64,000 nucleotides of DNA from an uncultured Gemmatimonadales bacterium (lineage in GTDB: Bacteria > Gemmatimonadota > Gemmatimonadetes > Longimicrobiales > Gaopeijiaceae), in NCBI GenBank assembly GCA_963809895.1, contig CAWELD010000010.1, positions 256,001 to 320,000 of the forward strand, read 5' to 3'. Below the pieces are notes generated by a model. That model saw only the letters and a program-made list of their open reading frames with translations, was not told the origin of the DNA and searched no databases. Position numbers and translations under genes: made by a program. Shown here piece after piece: positions 15,193 to 25,751 of the stretch (the stretch's first letter is position 1; the number at the start of each line of letters is the position of its first letter).

Positions 15193-18024
15193 TCAGTCCT
15201 GACGCCCGAGGCCCAGCGCGTCACGGACCACGCGTTCCTGCTCCTGGGCGTGGGCCCTGGCCCGGCCCTCGGCGGGGCTGGCCCGCTCGGGTCGTGACAC
15301 GTGGCGTAGCGGGAGCGTCCGGGGAACCACCGCCCGCAGCCGGGGACCGATGAAGGTGAGGGCGCCCATATTGCGGGGTTCCTCCTGGACCCAGACCACC
15401 TCCTCGAGCGACGGATAGCCCTTCACGACCGCCTCGATGTCGGCCGCGGGGAAGGGATAGAGCTGCTCGACCCGGGCCACGGCCACATGAGGCGCCTGAT
15501 CGCGTTCGCCGTAGCCCTGGATGTCGTAGTACACCTTGCCGGAGCAGAGCACCAGGCGACGGATCTCCGACCGCTCGCTGGCCAACTCACGATCGTCCAG
15601 CACCGGGTGGAAGCGTCCGTCGACCAGCTCCGAGGCGGGGGAGCTGGCGGCGGGAAGACGGAGCAGGCTCTTGGGCGTCATCACCACCTGCGGGTGCTCG
15701 GGACGCGCGTAGGCCTGACGTCGCAGCATGTGGAAGTACTGCGCCGGCGTGCTCGGATAGAGGACCCGCAGGTTCTCCTCGGCACAGAGCTGCAGGAAGC
15801 GCTCGAGCCGGGCGCTGGAGTGCTCCGGTCCCTGTCCCTCGTACCCGTGGGGGAGCAGCAGCGTCAGATTCGACACCTGTCCCCACTTCTGGCGGCCCGA
15901 CGAGATGAACTGGTCGATGGCCACCTGCGCCGCGTTCACGAAGTCTCCGAACTGGGCCTCCCACAGGACCAGGTCCTCCTTGCTCGCCACCGAGTAGCCG
16001 TACTCGAATCCCACGACCGCAGCCTCGGTGAGCGGCGAGTTGTAGATCTCGAAGCGGCCGTCGCCCACGTGGGCCAGCGGTGTGTAGGTCTCGCCGGTCT
16101 CGACGTCGTGGAGCACCAGGTGCCGTTGGCTGAAGGTGCCGCGCTGAGAGTCCTGTCCCGAGAGCCGTACCACCCGGGCCTCCTCCAGCAACGATCCCAG
16201 TGCCAGGGTCTCGGCGTAGGCCCAGTCCAGCCGGGTGTCTTCGGTGAAGCTCTCCCGCCGGCGATCGAGCTGGCGCTTCAGTTTGGGATGCACGGTGAAG
16301 CCTTCGGGAGCGCTGAGGGCGGCCTCGTTGAGATGGGCCAGCCGCTCCAGCGGCACGCCGGTGTCGGGCTCCACCACCTCGACGGCCTCGTCGATCACGG
16401 GGCTCGTGTCGCCGTTCTTGAGCTCTTCCTGGATGCGGTCCTGGGCCTCGCGGAAGATGCGGGCCACCTCGTCGTCCATGGCGTCGACGTCGTCCTGCGA
16501 GACGACGCCCTCTTCCACCAGACGCCGCGCCAGGATCGTGCGCACGGTGGGGTGCTCCCCGATGCGGGCATAGAGCCGGGGCTGCGTGTACGCCGGCTCG
16601 TCGCCTTCGTTGTGGCCGTGGCGACGGTACCCCACCAGATCGATGACCACGTCGTCGTGGAAGCGGTCCCGGTACGCCATGGCCATGCGCATGGCCGCCA
16701 GGCACGCCTCGGGCTCGTCGGCGTTCACGTGCAGGATCGGAAAGTCGTAGCCTTTGGCCAGGTCGCTGGCGTACAGGGTGGACCGCCCCTCGCTGGGCGT
16801 GGTCGTGAACCCGATCTGGTTGTTGGCGATCACGTGGACGGTGCCGCCCACGGAGTAGCCCTCCAGGCGGGCCATGTTGAGACCTTCGGCGACGATTCCC
16901 TCGGCGGCGAAGGCCGCGTCGCCGTGGATCAGCACCGGTACCACGGCGTCGGTGTCCTGTGTCGCGTCGCCGTTTCCGTCTCCGAACTGCCAGGCCCGCG
17001 TCATGCCCATGACCACCGGGTTCACGAATTCCAGGTGGCTGGGATTCGGGGCGAGGACCACGTCCATGGTCGTGCCGTCGGGCAGCGTGTACTCGCCCCG
17101 GGCTCCGTGGTGGTATTTCACGTCACCCGTGCCCGCCACCGCCAGCGCGCCTCGTCCCTTGAGGCCCTCGAACTCCCGGAACATCTCCCCGTAGGAGACC
17201 CCGAGAATGTGCGTGAGCACGTTGAGGCGGCCGCGGTGCGCCATGCCGATCACGACTTTCGTGCCACCACGGGCGGCGGCTTCCACCAGCGCCGTATCCA
17301 GCATGGGCACGAGCATGTCGGTGCCCTCGATGGAGAAGCGCTTCTGCCCCAGGTAGGCCCGCTGCAGGAATTGCTCGAATCCCTCGACGCTGGTCAGGCG
17401 CTCCAGAAGCCGGCGGCGTTCGTCGGCCGAGGGCGGGCTCGTGTGGATGCCCGACTCCACCTGATCCCACATCCAGCGCACGCGCTCCGGGTCGACCAGG
17501 TGCTCGAACTCGTAGGCGATGGCGCTGCAGTAGGCCTCACGCAGGCGGCGCAGAGCGTGCGCCACGCTCTCTCCGGGCGTGGCCTCGGACTCGTCCATGA
17601 TGATGGAGGCGGGCACTTCTTCCAGCTCCTCCATGGAGGTGCCGAAGAACGACGGATCCAACTGGGGATGTCCGGGCGGATCGCTTCCCAGCGGATCGAT
17701 GTGCGCCAGCATGTGCCCGTGGTCCCGGAAGGCCTGCACGAAGGAAGTCGCCCGGGCCACCACCGGGAGCAGCCGCTCCAGACGGGCGGCGTCGGCGCTG
17801 GCGGGCACCTCCGACGGCCTGGCGGCAGGCGGTGCGGGAGCGGCCACGCCTCCGTTGCCCGAGAGGCTCTCCGGCACCAGCAGGCCGGCCGCCTCGGCGG
17901 CGCCCGTGCCCCGGGCGAAGAAGGTTCGCCAGGACTCCGGCACGGCTTCCGGATTGCGGGCGAATTCCTCGTAGAGCGCCTGCGCGTACGCGGCGTTCTG
18001 ACTATCGAATGGCGTGTCGCTCAT
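15193..18024 (-). CDS. sucA: 2-oxoglutarate dehydrogenase E1 component
   Basis: KRFSIEG, GMAHRGRLN, HGDAAF TPP motif, WEAQFGDF, PEHSSARLERFLQ. Confidence 0.96.
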   Translation of the reverse strand: MSDTPFDSQNAAYAQALYEEFARNPEAVPESWRTFFARGTGAAEAAGLLVPESLSGNGGVAAPAPPAARPSEVPASADAARLERLLPVVARATSFVQAFRDHGHMLAHIDPLGSDPPGHPQLDPSFFGTSMEELEEVPASIIMDESEATPGESVAHALRRLREAYCSAIAYEFEHLVDPERVRWMWDQVESGIHTSPPSADERRRLLERLTSVEGFEQFLQRAYLGQKRFSIEGTDMLVPMLDTALVEAAARGGTKVVIGMAHRGRLNVLTHILGVSYGEMFREFEGLKGRGALAVAGTGDVKYHHGARGEYTLPDGTTMDVVLAPNPSHLEFVNPVVMGMTRAWQFGDGNGDATQDTDAVVPVLIHGDAAFAAEGIVAEGLNMARLEGYSVGGTVHVIANNQIGFTTTPSEGRSTLYASDLAKGYDFPILHVNADEPEACLAAMRMAMAYRDRFHDDVVIDLVGYRRHGHNEGDEPAYTQPRLYARIGEHPTVRTILARRLVEEGVVSQDDVDAMDDEVARIFREAQDRIQEELKNGDTSPVIDEAVEVVEPDTGVPLERLAHLNEAALSAPEGFTVHPKLKRQLDRRRESFTEDTRLDWAYAETLALGSLLEEARVVRLSGQDSQRGTFSQRHLVLHDVETGETYTPLAHVGDGRFEIYNSPLTEAAVVGFEYGYSVASKEDLVLWEAQFGDFVNAAQVAIDQFISSGRQKWGQVSNLTLLLPHGYEGQGPEHSSARLERFLQLCAEENLRVLYPSTPAQYFHMLRRQAYARPEHPQVVMTPKSLLRLPAASSPASELVDGRFHPVLDDRELASERSEIRRLVLCSGKVYYDIQGYGERDQAPHVAVARVEQLYPFPAADIEAVVKGYPSLEEVVWVQEEPRNMGALTFIGPRLRAVVPRTLPLRHVSRPERASPAEGRARAHAQEQERVVRDALGLGRQD

Positions 18025-18155
18025 TGGGTCCTGATCCAGGTACGGACATCCCCTGCTTCCTTCGGCCTTCAAAGCTACGAAAATTCGTTCTCGGGGCGAG
18101 GGCGGCCGGGGGCGCCCGTGGCCTGTCCCGGAGCGTCCTCCTATTGTTCGCCGCC

Positions 18156-18938
18156 ATGGATACCCTCTCGCCTCCCCACGGACCCACGATCTCCGAAGAG
18201 GCCGCCGTCGGGCCCGTGCCCTATGCGGTCCACCCCGGCTGGCGGCGGGCGTTCCCCTGGCTCGCTCACGGAATCACCCGGGAAGGGGATCCAGCGACCC
18301 CGTGGGACATGGCGCTTTTCGGGGACGGCGCCGCGGCCCCCACTCTGCGCCGCTGGCAGTCGCTTCTCGACGCCGTGGGCATGGACCGGGCCGTGCACGC
18401 CCGCCAGGTGCACGGCGCGGCGGTGCGTGTCCACGACGGCCTCGCCCCGGGGATTCGACTCGCCCCGGATTGCGATGGGCACGTGACCGGCGCGCCGGGC
18501 GTGCTGCTGGCGGTCACGGTGGCGGACTGCGTGCCGGTGTGGCTGGTCCACCCCCGGCGGCGCGCGGTCGCCCTCCTGCACGCGGGCTGGCGTGGCATCG
18601 CCGCCGGCGTCCTGGAGTCGGGGCTCGCGGCGCTTCGGACGCGGTTCGGCATCTCGGCCGGGGAGCTGCACCTGCACCTCGGGCCCGCCATCTGCGGCCG
18701 ATGCTACGAGGTGGGCCCGGAGGTGCACGACGCCCTGGGCTTGCCCCGGCCGGAACGGCCCACTCCCGTGGACCTGCGCACGCTGCTCCGGGAGCGAGCG
18801 ATCAGCGCCGGCGTGCAGGAGGCGCACACCACCGCCTCGGCGCACTGCACGCGTTGCGGAGAGCTGGACCTGTTCTCGCATCGGCGAGGCCGGTACGAGC
18901 GCCAGGTGGCCTTCGCGGGCATCCGTGTCGGGGCCTGA
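18156..18938 (+). CDS. pgeF: YfiH/PgeF family purine nucleoside phosphorylase (laccase-domain protein)
   Basis: QVHG, VADCVPV, HAGWRG, GPAICxxCYEVG, CTxC..FSHR motifs. Confidence 0.88.
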   Translation: MDTLSPPHGPTISEEAAVGPVPYAVHPGWRRAFPWLAHGITREGDPATPWDMALFGDGAAAPTLRRWQSLLDAVGMDRAVHARQVHGAAVRVHDGLAPGIRLAPDCDGHVTGAPGVLLAVTVADCVPVWLVHPRRRAVALLHAGWRGIAAGVLESGLAALRTRFGISAGELHLHLGPAICGRCYEVGPEVHDALGLPRPERPTPVDLRTLLRERAISAGVQEAHTTASAHCTRCGELDLFSHRRGRYERQVAFAGIRVGA

Positions 18939-18956
18939 CGGTGGGGGTGGCGGGTG

Positions 18957-19175
18957 ATGCCCCGCGGCGAGGTGTTGCCGGGCCTGTGTGGAGACTGCCG
19001 CCACGCGCGCGTGATCGAGAACCGTCGGGGCTCCACCTTCTATCTGTGCGAGCGTTCTCGCACCGATCCCCGCTTTCCCAGGTACCCGCCTCTGCCGGTA
19101 CTGGCCTGCCCGGGCTTCGAACCCGCGGCCCACGATCCCCCTGACAACCACCAATCCGAAACGGAGAGACCATGA
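18957..19175 (+). CDS. Small 4-Cys hypothetical protein (possible Zn or Fe-S binding)
   Basis: About 72 aa, CGDC...C...C pattern; stop overlaps the next start (ATGA). Confidence 0.75.
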   Translation: MPRGEVLPGLCGDCRHARVIENRRGSTFYLCERSRTDPRFPRYPPLPVLACPGFEPAAHDPPDNHQSETERP

Positions 19176-19642
19176 GCGAGCCCTTCTACGTATCGCGCTG
19201 CACGGTGACCCGGGTGGCCGGCGTCCACCGTCGAGCCCGCCTCCAGGACGGCACCATCGTGGAGATGGGCGTCCACGGCGCCATCAAGCGACACTACGGC
19301 CTGGACGCCGAGCCGGACCTTCCGCTGCCGGTGGATCTGCTGGTGGCCGCCGCTGCCGGGTGACTACTGGGAACCCTCAATGGCGCGCTGGAGGCGCGCG
19401 AGATCCTTCTCTCGCCCGACGACCTCACGGTCGAGGCCGAGGGCATCAACGAGATCCGGGACCGGGTGCCCGTGCTGACCCTGATCCAGGTGCACTACAC
19501 CATGACCATTCCCCGGGGAACGCGTGACGCCGTGGACCGGGCGCTGGCCCGGCACGTCGATCGGTGTCCCACCGCGTGCTCGCTCAAGGGCGCGGTGTCG
19601 GTGACGTGGACCGCGGAGATCGAGGAGGCGGACGAGGCGTAG
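19172..19642 (+). CDS. OsmC/Ohr-like protein, probable selenoprotein (UGA 19361-19363 read as Sec)
   Basis: PVDLLVAAAAG-[TGA]-LLGTLNGAL matches the OsmC first-Cys motif. The frame stays open to TAG 19640-19642 and includes the second motif RCPTA. SECIS-like hairpin follows. 156 aa total. Confidence 0.85.
19364..19408 (+). promoter_or_regulatory. Candidate bacterial SECIS element
   Basis: GCGCGC (19383-88), loop TGGAG, GCGCGC (19394-99); the loop starts 25 nt after UGA with G at loop position 2; lower pairings CTC/GAG and GGA/TCC possible. Confidence 0.65.
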
Positions 19643-19646
19643 CCCG

Positions 19647-20996
19647 TCAGGCCAACGTGGTCTCGCTCTCTCGTCGCTCCTCGAGGCGCACGCCGATGCG
19701 CGACGCGGATTCCAGCGACAGGAGCAGGAGAGGGGGTACCCAGATCAGGGCGCGGGCCCAGAGAGGCTGGGGCCACACACCGGTATCCATGGCTGTCGGG
19801 AGTCCCCAGTAGCCCAGCAACGAAGTGCAGGTGAGGAGGAGCCAGGACCGGCGGCGATTCAGGACGGCCATGGGCAGCACCCAGAGGGCGTGCCAGGGAT
19901 AGAGCACGGGAGACAGCACGAGGGCGCCGCCGATGACGGCGAGAAGGCCGCGGCTCGTCGGGAAGCGGTTCGACGTCGCCCACATGACCACCAGCATGAA
20001 GAGGATGGTGGCGGCCAGCCGCGGCAGGGCCGTGCCTGGAAGGACCCAATCCAGCAGGGCGAAGATCCCTCCATTGAAGCGCGTGTGGTCCAGGAAGACG
20101 TTGGCGCCGTCGAAGAGGTGGGAGATGCCCGCCCAATACGGGAGCAGCGCGACGAGGAACAGCGCCAGGGCCACCGCCAGATACCGGAACCCCAGGCGGA
20201 TCGCGACGGCGGGTACGGCGGTGGCGGGCACCAGGCCCACGAGCGCCGACCAGGCGGTGCCCAGCGCGGCTCCCACGGGCCGCCGAGCCCACGCCAGCGC
20301 CAACGCCAACCCCAGCAATCCGAGTATCTGGACGTGGGCGTTCCAGGCGGTTTCGACAAGAAGAAGCGGGGACCAGAAGTAGAGGATCAGGGTCAGGCGA
20401 CGACCCCGGGAGTGGACTCGGGCCGCGCGAATCATGAGGGCGGCGGTGGCCAGGTCCGCCACCATCCACAACAACTTGAGGCCCAGCACCTGGAGCCCGC
20501 TCCACGCCGCGATGACGAACGCCCCCTGGGCCAGCGGCGGGTAGAGGGTGTGCATTCCGGGATTCGGAACGAGATCGAACCAGGCGGTGCGAAGGGGTTC
20601 GAGCACCGCCGCGCCGGGGGCGTAGAGATAGGGGTTCACGCCCTGCAGCTGGATGTAGCCGTCCCAGAGGTAGCGCCATACGTCGCGGGTGAGCTCCGGC
20701 GGCACCGGCATCAGGATCAGCCTGGCGGCGATCCCCACGATCCAGATCCAGGTCAGCGACGCGGCGCCGTCCCGGACGGCGTTGGCAGCGGCGGCGTACC
20801 CCACGATGGCCAGGACGAGGAGTCCGAAGCCCGGCCAGGGGAACGGCAGGTTCGGCCACCACGCCAGCGCCGCCAGACTGCCCACCTCCAGGGCTGCAGC
20901 GCCGAAGAAGACCGCCCGCAGCCGCGAACCGTCGGCCGGTGCGGCGGCCGCTTCGGCGGAGCGCTCGGTCATGCGGCGCGCGTCCGTGAAGACCAT
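19647..20996 (-). CDS. Polytopic GT-C glycosyltransferase (GT87/DUF2029-like)
   Basis: DVWRYLWDG...NPY and TLYPP motifs, many TM helices; start uncertain (20996 or 20972). Confidence 0.75.
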   Translation of the reverse strand: MVFTDARRMTERSAEAAAAPADGSRLRAVFFGAAALEVGSLAALAWWPNLPFPWPGFGLLVLAIVGYAAAANAVRDGAASLTWIWIVGIAARLILMPVPPELTRDVWRYLWDGYIQLQGVNPYLYAPGAAVLEPLRTAWFDLVPNPGMHTLYPPLAQGAFVIAAWSGLQVLGLKLLWMVADLATAALMIRAARVHSRGRRLTLILYFWSPLLLVETAWNAHVQILGLLGLALALAWARRPVGAALGTAWSALVGLVPATAVPAVAIRLGFRYLAVALALFLVALLPYWAGISHLFDGANVFLDHTRFNGGIFALLDWVLPGTALPRLAATILFMLVVMWATSNRFPTSRGLLAVIGGALVLSPVLYPWHALWVLPMAVLNRRRSWLLLTCTSLLGYWGLPTAMDTGVWPQPLWARALIWVPPLLLLSLESASRIGVRLEERRESETTLA

Positions 20997-21042: not shown

Positions 21043-21861
21043 TCACCCTGCGAGGAACTCCAGCAGTGCGTCAAGCGATTCCTGCGGCCGCTCGTCCACG
21101 GGAAGGTGGCCACATCGGTCCAGGATCACCAGTTGCGCGTTCGGGATCTCGCGGCTGAGGCGCTCCCCGACCCAGAGCGGGACGACGGGATCGTCGCGGC
21201 CCCAGAGACACAGTGTAGGCACCTCGATCCCACCGTAGCGAGCCATCAACGCGGGAAGCTCGGGGGGCACGATGTGGGCCGCGCAGGTCACCAGGGCGGC
21301 CTGGGTGTCGGGGTCGGTGAGCGGATCGGCGAAGGTCGCGACGCGCTCCGGCGTGACGACCTGGTCCTGCACCACGACGTCACGCATGACCTTCGCCACC
21401 AGCCAGCGTTTCGGTGCCAGTCGCAGGACCATGCGGCTGAAGGTCGGGTGGTCCGCAAAACGCACGAAAGGCGGCGCTGCCTGGGGGTACGCGGCTCCGG
21501 CCACGCTCACCAGTCGAGCCAGGCGCCCCTCGTCGTCGTCCTGGAGCCGCACCGCCGCTGCCAGGGCCACTCCTCCGCCCAGCGAGTGCCCGATGAGCGT
21601 GGCGTCACGCAGATCCAGCTCCCGGACCAGGTCACCGACGGCGCCCCCGAGGCTCAGAGGATCGTAGGCACCGTCACGGGGCTTGGGGGCGGCGCCGAAA
21701 CCGGTCAGATCCACGTTCACCACCCGGTAGCGGGCGCGGAGGGGCGCGAGCCAGGGCGCCCACACGGCCCCATGGGCGCCGTAGCCGTGGATGAGGACCA
21801 AGGGCTCGCCCGTTCCCTCGTCGGTCCAGGCCAGGGGGATCGCCGCCCGCCCCTGCCTCAT
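21043..21861 (-). CDS. Alpha/beta-fold hydrolase
   Basis: LIHG, GHSLGG nucleophile, WGRDD acid, GH catalytic His; ATGA-coupled to the upstream ATPase gene. Confidence 0.9.
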   Translation of the reverse strand: MRQGRAAIPLAWTDEGTGEPLVLIHGYGAHGAVWAPWLAPLRARYRVVNVDLTGFGAAPKPRDGAYDPLSLGGAVGDLVRELDLRDATLIGHSLGGGVALAAAVRLQDDDEGRLARLVSVAGAAYPQAAPPFVRFADHPTFSRMVLRLAPKRWLVAKVMRDVVVQDQVVTPERVATFADPLTDPDTQAALVTCAAHIVPPELPALMARYGGIEVPTLCLWGRDDPVVPLWVGERLSREIPNAQLVILDRCGHLPVDERPQESLDALLEFLAG

Positions 21862-24500
21862 GGCGCCTCCAGCTCCAGGCGGTGCGCGCCGCGGGCCTCG
21901 GCCTCGCGGGCGAGGTCGTCGTGGCAGGTGAAGAGGAAGACCTGGCGGGTGTCCGCCGCAGTGGCGAGCAGGTCCAGCCCGCGGCCCCGCCGCCTGGCGT
22001 CCCAGTTGACGAAGACCTCGTCCAGGAACAGCGGGAGCCGCTCGCCCGAGCGGTCCAGCTCGTCGAGAAGGGCGAGGCGCAACGCCAGGTAGACCTGTTC
22101 GCGCGTGCCGGTGGAGAGCGGGGGGCCCACCGGCCGGGGCTCGGCGAGGGCGGGGCCGCGGACCATGAAGGTGCGTCCGTCCTCGCCGCCGAGCAGGAGT
22201 CGATCGTAGCGCCCCCCGGTGAGGATGGAGAGAAAGCGCCCGGCACGCCGGAGGGCGCCGGGTTGATGCTCCTCGCGGATCCACCGGTCTGCATCGCGAA
22301 CCACCCGGGCCATGATGTAGAGGCGGTCCCGGCGGCGAGCCAGGTGGGCGCATTCCTCTTCCAGGCTCTCGATCTCCCCGTCGAGATCGTCCAGGGTGTC
22401 CCGGTCGGCGAGGTGCGCTACCTCGCCCCCGAGGCCCTCCACCCTCCTGGCGAGCTCCTCGATCTCCTCGGTCAGGCCCTTCTCCCGTGCGGCGAGTCGG
22501 GCCAGCTGCTCGTCGTCGGGGAGGGCCTCCTCGCTCCACGAGGCCGGATCCGGCGTGAGCTCGGCCAGCTCGGCCTGCGCTTCGTGCGCCCGTCGAAGCG
22601 CGTCCAGGCGCTCCCTCGCCTCACGGGCCCCGGCGATGGGATCGCCCTCCGGATCGAAGGCCGCCAGGCGGTCCCGCAGGGTGTGCGCGGCCCGCTCGGT
22701 CTCCTCCACGTGAGCGCAGACGCGCCGCCTCTCCCGGGCGAGCCGTTCCAGCTCGCCCTCGGCGGCGCGGGCCGCCTCCATGCGTCGGGTGGCGGCACGC
22801 ACGGCGTGACGCGCGGCGTGCAGGGCCGCACCGGGATCGGCGACCGGGAGGTCGTCGAGGGGCAACTCGGCGACGAATGCAGCTATGTCGGCGCCCAGGC
22901 CCTCCACGGACTCTGCCAGCTGCCGCTTGCGCGCCCGACGTTCGCGGAGGTCCCTCAGGATCTCCTGGATGCGCTCGACGTCACCGGCGAGCTCGGGACC
23001 CACGGGCCGCCCCTCGACCAGGAGCGCGAGGTCTCCCAGGATCTCGCTGAGCTGGGCCCGCGCCCGCTCCGCGTCGCGCCGGGCTCGCTGGGCGTCCTCG
23101 TGCCTGGTTGCGCCCCGCCGACGAGAGCGCAGCCACCAGAGCAGGCCGGCAGCGGTCGCGGCCCCGGCCAGAAGGGCGGCTCCCAGGGCGAGCACCAGCA
23201 CCTGGCCGGCCGTGGCGCCGACCGCGACGCCCGCCAGGCCCAGCAGGGCGGCCCCCACCAGGGGTGTCCGCGGAAAGGGAGGCAGGGCGTCGGAGTGATC
23301 CTCGGCCTCGGCCTGTCGCTGGCGAGTCGCCGCGTCGGTCCACGCCCGCAACGTGTCCCGGAGCCGGGGCAGCGGGATTCGGAGCCAGGCCTCTTCGTCG
23401 GCGTCGGCCCCGCCGTCGAGTCGCGATCGAACCGTGTCGAGGCGGCGTCCGAGATCGCGGACCTCCTGATCCAGCTGCGCGATGCGCAGGCGATTCTGGT
23501 CGGCACTCGCCCAGTGTCCGGCCAACTGTTCCAGTCGGGCCTCGCCGGCGAGCAGGCGCCTGTCCGCCTCGGTGAAGGCGTCCAGCGCCGATCGCGGGGC
23601 GCTCTCGTCGCTGGCCAGCCGCGCCAGGTCGTCCTGGGCGTCACGATGATGGCCCTGGGCCTCGGCCAGCGCGCGCTCGGGATCGGGGGGAAGATCGTCG
23701 AGCGGCTCGGGATCCCCCGCTCGAGCCTCGAGGTCCCGCGCGCGCCGAAGTCGACGCCGTACCGGAAGCAGCCGGCGCGCCCGCTCGAGCTCCACCCGGC
23801 AGCGTTCACGCTCCTCTCGCCGCGCCTCCAACAACTCGCGGGCGCGCCTAAGCTCCGCCTGTGCGTCGCGCATGCGTCGGTCGGCCTCCCGCACGTCGCT
23901 CCGGCGGAAACGCAGCTCCCCGATGCGCTCCCGGAGGTCGCGGATGCGCTGGTGGCCACGTCGATTGGGACGCCACAGAGCACCGGCCTCCGCTTCCAGC
24001 TCGTCGGCGACCGTCCGGGCCGGACGGAGGTCCCGTGCCCCGAGGGCGCCCACGAGCCGATCCTGCACCGCGTCCCAGCCGTCGGCGTCCAGCGAGGCGA
24101 GCTCCGCGAGCCCCAGGGCGAACACCTGCCGAAAGACCGGGAGCGGCACATGGGCGGCAGCCGGCACCGTGTGGTTCCGGATCGGCTCCTCCACGCTGCC
24201 TCGCACCAGAGACCCGGTCGGCGACGACAGAAGGCGCCGATGGACCTCCAGGACCTGTCCCGTTTGCAGACGCAGGACGGCATCGCCCGCGGCGTCACCG
24301 CCGGCCCAGGGAGCCCATGGGTTGCGGTCCCGCGAGGACGGATAGAAGCCGTAGAGCAGCGCGGTCAGGAACTCGAAGAAGGAGCTCTTGCCGGCCTCGT
24401 TCTCGCCGTGGACGAGCACCCAGGACGGAAGCGGCGCATCTCCCGTGTCGACTTCCTGGAGACCCCCGAAGGCCTGGATCCGGATCCGCTCGAACCGCAT
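21858..24500 (-). CDS. YhaN-like SMC/Rad50-type ATPase with internal TM hairpin
   Basis: Walker A GENEAGKS, long coiled coil, central hydrophobic hairpin, LSTGTREQ signature, Walker B LFLDEVFVNWD. Confidence 0.88.
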   Translation of the reverse strand: MRFERIRIQAFGGLQEVDTGDAPLPSWVLVHGENEAGKSSFFEFLTALLYGFYPSSRDRNPWAPWAGGDAAGDAVLRLQTGQVLEVHRRLLSSPTGSLVRGSVEEPIRNHTVPAAAHVPLPVFRQVFALGLAELASLDADGWDAVQDRLVGALGARDLRPARTVADELEAEAGALWRPNRRGHQRIRDLRERIGELRFRRSDVREADRRMRDAQAELRRARELLEARREERERCRVELERARRLLPVRRRLRRARDLEARAGDPEPLDDLPPDPERALAEAQGHHRDAQDDLARLASDESAPRSALDAFTEADRRLLAGEARLEQLAGHWASADQNRLRIAQLDQEVRDLGRRLDTVRSRLDGGADADEEAWLRIPLPRLRDTLRAWTDAATRQRQAEAEDHSDALPPFPRTPLVGAALLGLAGVAVGATAGQVLVLALGAALLAGAATAAGLLWWLRSRRRGATRHEDAQRARRDAERARAQLSEILGDLALLVEGRPVGPELAGDVERIQEILRDLRERRARKRQLAESVEGLGADIAAFVAELPLDDLPVADPGAALHAARHAVRAATRRMEAARAAEGELERLARERRRVCAHVEETERAAHTLRDRLAAFDPEGDPIAGAREARERLDALRRAHEAQAELAELTPDPASWSEEALPDDEQLARLAAREKGLTEEIEELARRVEGLGGEVAHLADRDTLDDLDGEIESLEEECAHLARRRDRLYIMARVVRDADRWIREEHQPGALRRAGRFLSILTGGRYDRLLLGGEDGRTFMVRGPALAEPRPVGPPLSTGTREQVYLALRLALLDELDRSGERLPLFLDEVFVNWDARRRGRGLDLLATAADTRQVFLFTCHDDLAREAEARGAHRLELEAP

Positions 24501-24506
24501 GGTCTC

Positions 24507-25751
24507 CTACCGGGCCCGCTCGGGATCCAGCATGCGCGCCAGGATCTCACCCTCGGCGTCGCCCAGAACCTCTCGCACGTAGTCCCGGGCATCGACATCG
24601 TCTCGCAACCCCGCGAGCTCCCGCTCCAGGCCCGCCGGAAGGGCGCCCTGGCCGTGGGCGAGCTCCCGCAGGCGCCGGAGCGCGACCCCCAGGACGTCTT
24701 CCCGGCCCTCGTGCATGTCGGCGTCCACCACCGCGTGCACGCGGTCGGCGCGGACCTCCACGTCCAGGGCGCCGATGGCCTCGCGCAGCTCGCGGGCCAG
24801 CGCCGGCCGCTCGTCGTCCGAGGCGAGCTCTCGCCAGAGGGGCGTGCCGCCGGCGAGGGTCACGCGCACCATCCACTCGGCGTCGGGCGCCGGATCGGCC
24901 GCGCGCGCAGCGCGCCAGCGTCGGGTCACCGCACCCACCACCGCGTCCAGGGTGGCGGCGTCGCCGAGATCGGATACCTCGATAGACTCCCAGCGCACCG
25001 GTGCGAACGCTCGGAACTCCACCTCGGCCGCTCCGTCGACCCCCACGTCGACGAGCAGGCCACCGCGCGGCCCCGACTCGGCGTGGGTGCGACCCTGCAG
25101 GTTTCCAGGGTAGTGGATCGCCGGAAGCCCGGAGAGCGCCTGCCGGGTGTGCACGTGCCCGAGCGCCCAGTAGTGGTACCCGGCCCGACGCAGGGTCTCC
25201 ACCTCGGTCGGAGCGTAGGGCTCATGGGCCTCTTCGTCGCGGGACCCGACCACCTGAGCGTGCAGGACCGCGATCTCGGGCCGGTGTCCCTCCGGACGGG
25301 GAAAGCGGGCCGCCAGGTCACGTGTCTCACGGGGTCCGGTGTGCCCCGCAGCCGTCACGTGCCCCACCACCGTTCCGTCGCGGTCCCGGATGGCCACGCG
25401 GCGCGGCGTGGCGTCGGGAGCCACGGTCACGTTGCTCGGCCAGTGCAGGGACGCGGCGCGCGCGCCGTCACGACCCGGGTCGTGGTTGCCCGTAGCGTAG
25501 ACCACGGGGATGCTCGCGGCCTCGAGGCGGCCGAGCTCGTCCAGGAGGAAACGCTCGGTCTCGAAGGAGAGCGTGGCGCCGTCGAAGAGATCGCCGGCAA
25601 TGACCACGCACAGGACCTCCTCCGCCAGCGCGGCGTCCACGGCGCGCGCGAAGGCTCGGCGTGAGGCGTCACGCAGGCGCCGGCGGAGGTCCGGTGAGCG
25701 CCCTGCGAACGGCGTGTCCAGGTGAACGTCGGCAAGATGTAGGATGCGCAT
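24507..25751 (-). CDS. YhaO-like Mre11/SbcD-type metallophosphoesterase nuclease
   Basis: ADVHLD, AGDLFD, GNHD, ALGHVH and YPGNLQGR motifs. Confidence 0.9.
   Translation of the reverse strand: MRILHLADVHLDTPFAGRSPDLRRRLRDASRRAFARAVDAALAEEVLCVVIAGDLFDGATLSFETERFLLDELGRLEAASIPVVYATGNHDPGRDGARAASLHWPSNVTVAPDATPRRVAIRDRDGTVVGHVTAAGHTGPRETRDLAARFPRPEGHRPEIAVLHAQVVGSRDEEAHEPYAPTEVETLRRAGYHYWALGHVHTRQALSGLPAIHYPGNLQGRTHAESGPRGGLLVDVGVDGAAEVEFRAFAPVRWESIEVSDLGDAATLDAVVGAVTRRWRAARAADPAPDAEWMVRVTLAGGTPLWRELASDDERPALARELREAIGALDVEVRADRVHAVVDADMHEGREDVLGVALRRLRELAHGQGALPAGLERELAGLRDDVDARDYVREVLGDAEGEILARMLDPERAR

Follow-up and report, generated by a model that had tools for sequence, protein, structure and literature searches.

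The window, the whole 64,000-nt stretch of Gemmatimonadota DNA analyzed here, holds a gene whose internal TGA almost certainly codes for selenocysteine (Sec) at the active site of an OsmC/Ohr-type protein. We consider it highly probable that the gene is intact, that its UGA is decoded as Sec through SelB, and that the product is an OsmC-fold Sec64/Cys132 enzyme with a likely hydroperoxide cycle. Judged by sequence comparison, the protein is a subfamily-level addition to a kind that is already known, since OsmC-like selenoproteins have been predicted since 2005. The annotation error corrected here is systematic: the subfamily occurs in 113 of the 401 phylum genomes sampled, its database entries are mostly fragments, and the curated model for OsmC selenoproteins does not pick it up.

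Reading frame and gene context

Under translation table 11 the open reading frame (19172..19363) ends at the TGA after 63 amino acids. This TGA is the single internal stop of the longer frame, whose 156-aa read-through product includes the stretches AAAAG-U-LLGTL and RCPTAC; translation reproduced both the short frame and its extension as the initial annotation had described them. The Pfam OsmC model (PF02566) scores the read-through protein at 51.4 bits (cut-off 27.5) and its downstream half alone at 29.8 bits, the upstream half being without a match. GC3 is 0.89 on the 5' side of the TGA and 0.90 on the 3' side, and both halves look coding. The coordinates of all features are collected in Table 1.

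Table 1. Features of the OsmC-like locus in window positions; counts out of 125 refer to stop-containing loci, which include 4 unrelated OsmC-like loci and duplicates
Feature	Position	Strand	Basis
PF02578 gene, upstream	18156..18938	+	Pfam E 1e-46
72-aa four-Cys hypothetical protein, upstream of OsmC-like gene	18957..19175	+	no Pfam/NCBIfam family
RBS-like GGAGAG	19163..19168	+	read in sequence
Predicted OsmC/Ohr-fold selenoprotein gene, 156 aa	19172..19642	+	ATG to TAG, internal TGA read through
Arg20, candidate analogue of Ohr catalytic Arg (inferred)	19229..19231	+	R in 120/125
His35 of clade-specific GVHG motif, candidate active-site residue (inferred)	19274..19276	+	H in 121/125
Asp55 at U-9	19334..19336	+	D in 122/125
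In-frame UGA, predicted Sec64 at peroxidatic-Cys position	19361..19363	+	profile alignment and conservation
Putative bacterial SECIS hairpin GCGCGC-TGGAG-GCGCGC	19383..19399	+	6-bp stem, loop UGGAG 19389-19393
Cys132 (CP motif), predicted resolving Cys	19565..19567	+	invariant in alignment; aligns with second OsmC Cys

On sequence grounds the TGA is not an assembly error, because the codon is conserved across the phylum and because a contig from another public run (X2), of low depth and possibly not independent of the source sample, covers 19232-19416 with 0 differences, the TGA included. No read with TGC or TGT in its place was seen, so the sequencing error that the initial annotation had allowed for did not appear. 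A contig from an RNA run over 19344-19493 (1 difference) was rejected as evidence of expression, given its small word share and the 17 letters that it holds before the TGA. Neither a sigma-70 promoter nor an intrinsic terminator was found at 17900-20000.

Gene callers routinely split this widespread subfamily, as had been suspected from this one locus. Databases list the 63-aa front half as a protein of its own, and 97 of the best 120 database matches are rear halves of 89-97 aa that start at an ATG directly after the TGA.

The stop codon of the upstream four-Cys gene overlaps the start of the OsmC-like gene (ATGA), and because of this overlap the two are probably co-translated. Atlas look-alikes of the four-Cys protein at 0.95 are all hypothetical and occur in Actinomycetota and Acidobacteriota. 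The four-Cys gene adjoins the OsmC-like gene in 35 of 104 loci, the PF02578 gene, which we take to be PgeF/YfiH-like, in 34, and an upstream gene, presumably sucA-like, accompanies it in 18. Clustering the open reading frames of the 104 neighborhoods gave shadow frames for the most part, and no redox partner was conserved; the neighborhood is conserved in about a third of loci, is no redox operon, and gives no functional lead. Elsewhere in the window, adjacent genes for an AAA_27/SMC-like ATPase and a metallophosphoesterase, presumably a YhaN/YhaO-like pair, lie at 21858-25751 on the minus strand.

Decoding of the UGA

Taking E below 1e-9 as a strong match, we found matches to the gene in 127 of 401 Gemmatimonadota genomes, 113 of them strong and 14 weak. 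The internal TGA is present in every match among the matches listed, 54 weaker ones standing outside that set. Its closest relatives with a name belong to Gemmatimonadota, and many of these to Longimicrobiales. Among 105 loci examined in DNA, 104 cover the Sec column and represent 97 distinct genes, our own included; the column is TGA in 95 of these and TGC in 2, counts of related sequences rather than of independent events. The column is TGA without exception in another 20 loci, of which 17 are distant paralogues. TGA-bearing relatives are mostly 50-68% identical to the query, and the 85 loci checked have no stop besides this one. The column therefore holds TGA or Cys with conserved sequence on both sides, the pattern that the initial annotation had expected of homologues. 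Among 23 longer database homologues (of the best 120 matches) the column reads Cys in 19, Trp in 2, and Gly in 1, with 1 unparsed, and the Trp and Gly entries probably reflect the choice of a different code by the gene callers. A second, distant paralogue with the same TGA (L144-L160, roughly 35-45% identity) occurs in many relatives; it was not found in the source genome with this query.

The hairpin noted at the outset is present, its loop beginning 25 nt after the UGA and its energy being -12.9 kcal/mol. It satisfies all four constraints of the bacterial SECIS model as outlined in PMC13188914, a fit that is weak alone because, in a sample of 400 true TGA stops from the source genome (69% GC), 157 pass too; a stem of at least 6 bp together with GG is passed by 29 of the 400. 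Nor does the hairpin stand out from chance by its folding energy alone (z = -0.8 to -1.6). We therefore rejected energy or model fit alone as proof, since neither separates the hairpin from chance; on the sequence evidence, support for the hairpin lies in its conservation and covariation.

Covariation was read from 93 distinct TGA genes above 45% identity, after 1 more with too short a flank was dropped. All six pairs are kept in 92 of the 93, with compensatory changes: pair 26-34 is A-U in 60, G-C in 30, and G-U in 3; pair 25-35 is C-G in 90, U-A in 2, and G-U in 1; and pair 22-38 is G-C in 90, G-U in 2, and C-G in 1. The A-U/G-C switch at pair 26-34 changes the protein from Val to Ala, and the loops of the homologues read UGGAG, UGGAA, or UGGAU. 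Within the hairpin synonymous variation is reduced: third-position entropies are 0, 0.21, 0.24, and 0.92, whereas 31 sites outside it have a median of 1.41, and the rare codon GCA is used at Ala72 in 60 of 93 genes, against 62 of 1557 elsewhere. The one close homologue with TGC (L108) keeps the peptide and has 2 of the 6 pairs broken and the GG loop lost. Hairpins of the paralogues are mostly the same, some being weaker or having other loops. At a second site of the genome, near 1058212 on C10, a TGA is likewise followed after 24 nt by this hairpin motif; the frame there is noncoding (GC3 0.56-0.63), and we set the site aside as chance.

The machinery for Sec is complete in the source genome, which contains selA, selB, selC, and selD (SelA E 4e-134, selB 322 bits, selD 374 bits, all above cut-offs; tRNA-Sec 76.6 bits) and so supports the predicted use of selenium by this organism. 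The selD gene (C3:3207042-3207965, plus strand, L018) itself has an in-frame TGA, in HGAG-U-ACK, with a hairpin 32 nt downstream. Across the phylum selA occurs in 320 of 401 genomes (80%) and in all 113 with a strong match to the OsmC-like gene, tallies that include three genomes flagged as unpublished (G097, G057, G157), none of them among the 113. In the family of the source genome the OsmC-like gene is present in 57 of 69 genomes, and all 9 genomes without selA are among the 12 without the gene; the commonness of selA in the phylum and the kinship of the genomes limit the weight of this co-occurrence. Judged by selA, Sec use is the norm in this phylum, antioxidant-type enzymes included, although according to a 2026 review selenoproteins are rarely kept by aerobic bacteria (PMC13188914). 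From the machinery, the conservation, and the covariation taken together, we infer with near certainty that UGA64 is decoded as Sec.

Fold, active site, and known relatives

The AlphaFold model of the 156-aa protein (pLDDT 95.7) has the OsmC/Ohr fold (Foldseek E 1.6e-9), with 2ONF as the best structural match (Z 15.7, rmsd 2.0 over 138 residues), and sequence profiles agree. A search of the PDB with the single sequence gave no match, while a profile search gave matches. A profile built from 60 clade members pairs position 64 with the first Cys, and position 132 with the second, in OsmC proteins of solved structure, among them those of T. thermophilus and E. coli. The predicted placing of the TGA at the catalytic Cys, with a second Cys in a CP motif, is thereby supported. 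Presumably the protein is a homodimer like its family.

The model places Arg20 where beta2 begins, immediately past the beta1-beta2 turn, and His35 within the beta3-alpha loop; the His35 column is H in 74 of 92 full-length database proteins. His128 is also conserved in the clade, and G67 and T68 of the U-L-L-G-T motif are nearly invariant. Val54 occupies the canonical position of the catalytic Glu (U-10), where V, L, or I stands in 123 of the 125 stop-containing loci (composition as in Table 1).

Sec-containing OsmC-like proteins were mentioned in the initial annotation, and the literature indeed holds such predictions: 3 sequences from the Sargasso Sea in 2005 (PMC1088965) and 5 from GOS in 2008 (PMC2398784). 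The kind is listed as PF02566/COG1765 with motif UxxT (PMC9312934, PMC13188914), and a passage of PMC1976440 gives it as not detected. Our protein resembles the published ones in belonging to PF02566, in placing Sec where the long helix has its first catalytic Cys, and in its downstream bacterial SECIS; a representative, MCS5647933.1, compared by eye as it appears in PMC12013277, likewise has its second Cys close to the C-terminus and lacks a Glu at U-10. The motif differs (U-L-L-G-T, thus UxxxT, against UxxT), the second Cys lies in CP[TV] rather than in CFA as in that representative (PMC12013277), and the GVHG motif is absent from it. On NF041052 (OsmC_like_Se), which we assume to model the published family, the protein scores 12.8 bits against a cut-off of 95, with a best E of 1.7e-8 among 60 clade members, and no protein of the source genome or of 201 genomes of the phylum is over the cut-off. 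The reported sequences are few (3 and 5 in those two sources), in contrast to a clade that is present in 113 of 401 genomes of one phylum, often in two copies. A search of the literature on OsmC selenoproteins and on Gemmatimonad selenoproteins returned no description of this clade; it may already be in BSepDB, which according to its description covers Gemmatimonadota genomes (PMC13326102).

The Ohr-like/YhfA proteins (2ONF Ta0195, 1ML8, 2PN2) share the fold (Z 14.1 for 1ML8), the absence of the canonical Glu, and two catalytic positions, here 68 residues apart. They form a third Ohr/OsmC group that, as characterized in passages of PMC5384416 and PMC8945050, keeps the Cys pair, is without the Arg and Glu, and is poorly characterized. 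Unlike them, our protein (14-23% identity) has Sec for Cys and its own conserved Arg20, His35, Asp55, and His128. With Ohr and OsmC proper (TIGR03561, TIGR03562) it shares the fold (Z 12-14) and aligned columns for the peroxidatic and resolving Cys, a pair that the superfamily has about 60 residues apart, but it scores 16.4 bits against the OsmC cut-off of 85.8, has no match to the Ohr model, and has Val54 in place of the Glu ten residues before the peroxidatic Cys. By these scores and the missing Glu the protein is outside both subfamilies proper. The catalytic Arg sits in the beta1-beta2 loop in Ohr and in the beta3-alpha1 loop in OsmC; Arg20 and His35, placed in the model as given above, may be candidates for a comparable role. 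The proposed OsmC-family Sec/Cys redox enzyme thus stands in its OsmC/Ohr fold and its Sec64/Cys132 pair, while its class has to be amended from canonical OsmC/Ohr to Ohr-like (YhfA-type) without the catalytic Glu.

A FastTree phylogeny was built from 143 of 227 sequences after removal of near-duplicates and gappy rows; in it the clade of this gene has support of 1.00, with Cys forms nested at several places, among which L108 alone is verified as TGC in DNA. Because of this nesting, the tree fits an ancestral Sec in the clade with reversions to Cys. Across the wider family the Sec and Cys forms intermingle and the deep branches have low support, and the database side of the tree is biased because Sec genes are present there only as fragments. 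The clade supplies natural Sec/Cys pairs, together with a cleanly covarying SECIS, for probing what Sec brings to an Ohr-like enzyme.

Catalysis and alternative readings

In the mechanism that we propose, SelB with Sec-tRNA would bind the UGGAG hairpin 25 nt downstream, and UGA64 would be translated as Sec within one intact gene. Sec64 would replace the peroxidatic Cys, with Cys132 as resolving partner; the selenolate would reduce a hydroperoxide, oxidized Sec and Cys132 would form an Se-S bond, and a lipoylated protein or another dithiol would re-reduce it. Sec is more acidic (lower pKa) than Cys, which could make the Glu unnecessary; Cys members are also without it, so Sec is not a required compensation for its loss. 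The redox cycle is drawn from Ohr/OsmC chemistry, in which a peroxidatic and a resolving Cys act with an Arg and a Glu and lipoylated proteins carry out the re-reduction, as summarized in parts of PMC5384416 and PMC8945050. For Xf Ohr, whose Glu precedes the Cys by ten residues (Glu51/Cys61), E51A and R19A are given as leaving residual activity only, and loss of the Glu as raising the pKa from 5.9 to 7.2 (PMC5962072). An Ohr-like protein of T. vaginalis is cited as a peroxidase in one study and as having no such activity in another (PMC5384416, PMC8945050). By analogy, our protein probably works like a two-site thiol oxidoreductase of the OsmC/Ohr fold. Peroxidase activity is likely at most, because the clade is outside the modeled family and without the catalytic Glu, and a peroxide as substrate has somewhat better than even chances.

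The readings that dispense with Sec fare poorly. Were the TGA a true stop, a split pair of proteins could arise by restart at an ATG after it; an A, as the first base of ATG, follows the TGA in 48 of 93 homologues, and databases hold both halves as separate proteins. Here, however, CTA follows the TGA, and a CT- codon does so in 45 of the 93, which offers no ATG for a restart. A split would also remove the catalytic residue from mid-helix, continuous Cys forms exist, and neither the covarying hairpin nor the joint occurrence with selA would have an explanation, so that we regard stop and restart as very unlikely. Reassignment of UGA to Trp or Gly throughout the genome, or its reading as Cys, would suit the three database homologues with W or G at the column; against it, 1190 long high-GC3 frames of the source genome end in TGA, the sole UCA-anticodon tRNA found there is the tRNA-Sec, and the sense-codon homologues checked in DNA carry TGC, and we hold it to be extremely unlikely. 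Partial insertion of Cys at UGA64 may nevertheless occur under selenium shortage. A pseudogene or sequencing error, which has nothing in its favor beyond the stop itself, has a negligible chance in view of the same TGA in 95 of 97 distinct genes and the identical codon in the X2 contig.

A more serious competitor shares Sec decoding with our preferred explanation and differs in the reaction: Sec64, Cys132, and the GVHG His would serve another redox task, such as disulfide or persulfide exchange, the transfer of sulfur or selenium, or the reduction of one particular small molecule. The absent Glu at U-10 and the conserved, clade-specific His35 and His128 fit this reading, as do the closest structures, 2ONF and 1ML8, which are uncharacterized Ohr-like proteins; the function of the YhfA class is described in places as still to be investigated (PMC5384416, PMC8945050). 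Against it, the characterized members cited in those passages are all peroxidases, a conserved Arg lies near the site of the Ohr catalytic Arg, and conserved neighbors point to no other pathway; we regard it as a tenable but less probable alternative. A bolder version, which we think unlikely, would make the clade a separate OsmC-fold selenoprotein family that abounds in Gemmatimonadota, with Sec ancestral in the subclade of this gene and repeated reversions to Cys, its own catalytic set (Arg20, His35, Asp55, His128), and a reaction beyond plain peroxide reduction. If true, it would give a first handle on the function of the uncharacterized Ohr-like/YhfA group.

The source genome also contains other genes with features of interest. 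An AhpD/CMD-family gene (C3:841607, plus strand, L165) has the motif C-F-Y-TGA (CxxU) with a hairpin 16 nt downstream and, read through, scores 147.9 bits on TIGR01926, over the cut-off. An AhpC/TSA (peroxiredoxin-like) gene (C3:2553273, minus strand, L167) has W-TGA-P-H-C (UxxC) and a Pfam E of 8e-22 when read through. Each is probably a selenoprotein of a known type, and as peroxide-type Sec candidates the two speak in favor of our reading of the OsmC-like gene. Both of our genome-wide Sec scans were crude and missed selD, so they give no size for the selenoproteome; one further scan candidate, at C3:3400725, had no family match and was dropped. Three other OsmC-family genes, near 2218600, 2294200, and 2543600 on C3 (L128-L130), have no internal stops. 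At C10:355200-358464 lie 18 clustered tRNA genes, 17 of which form a tandem array of about 2 kb on a single strand.
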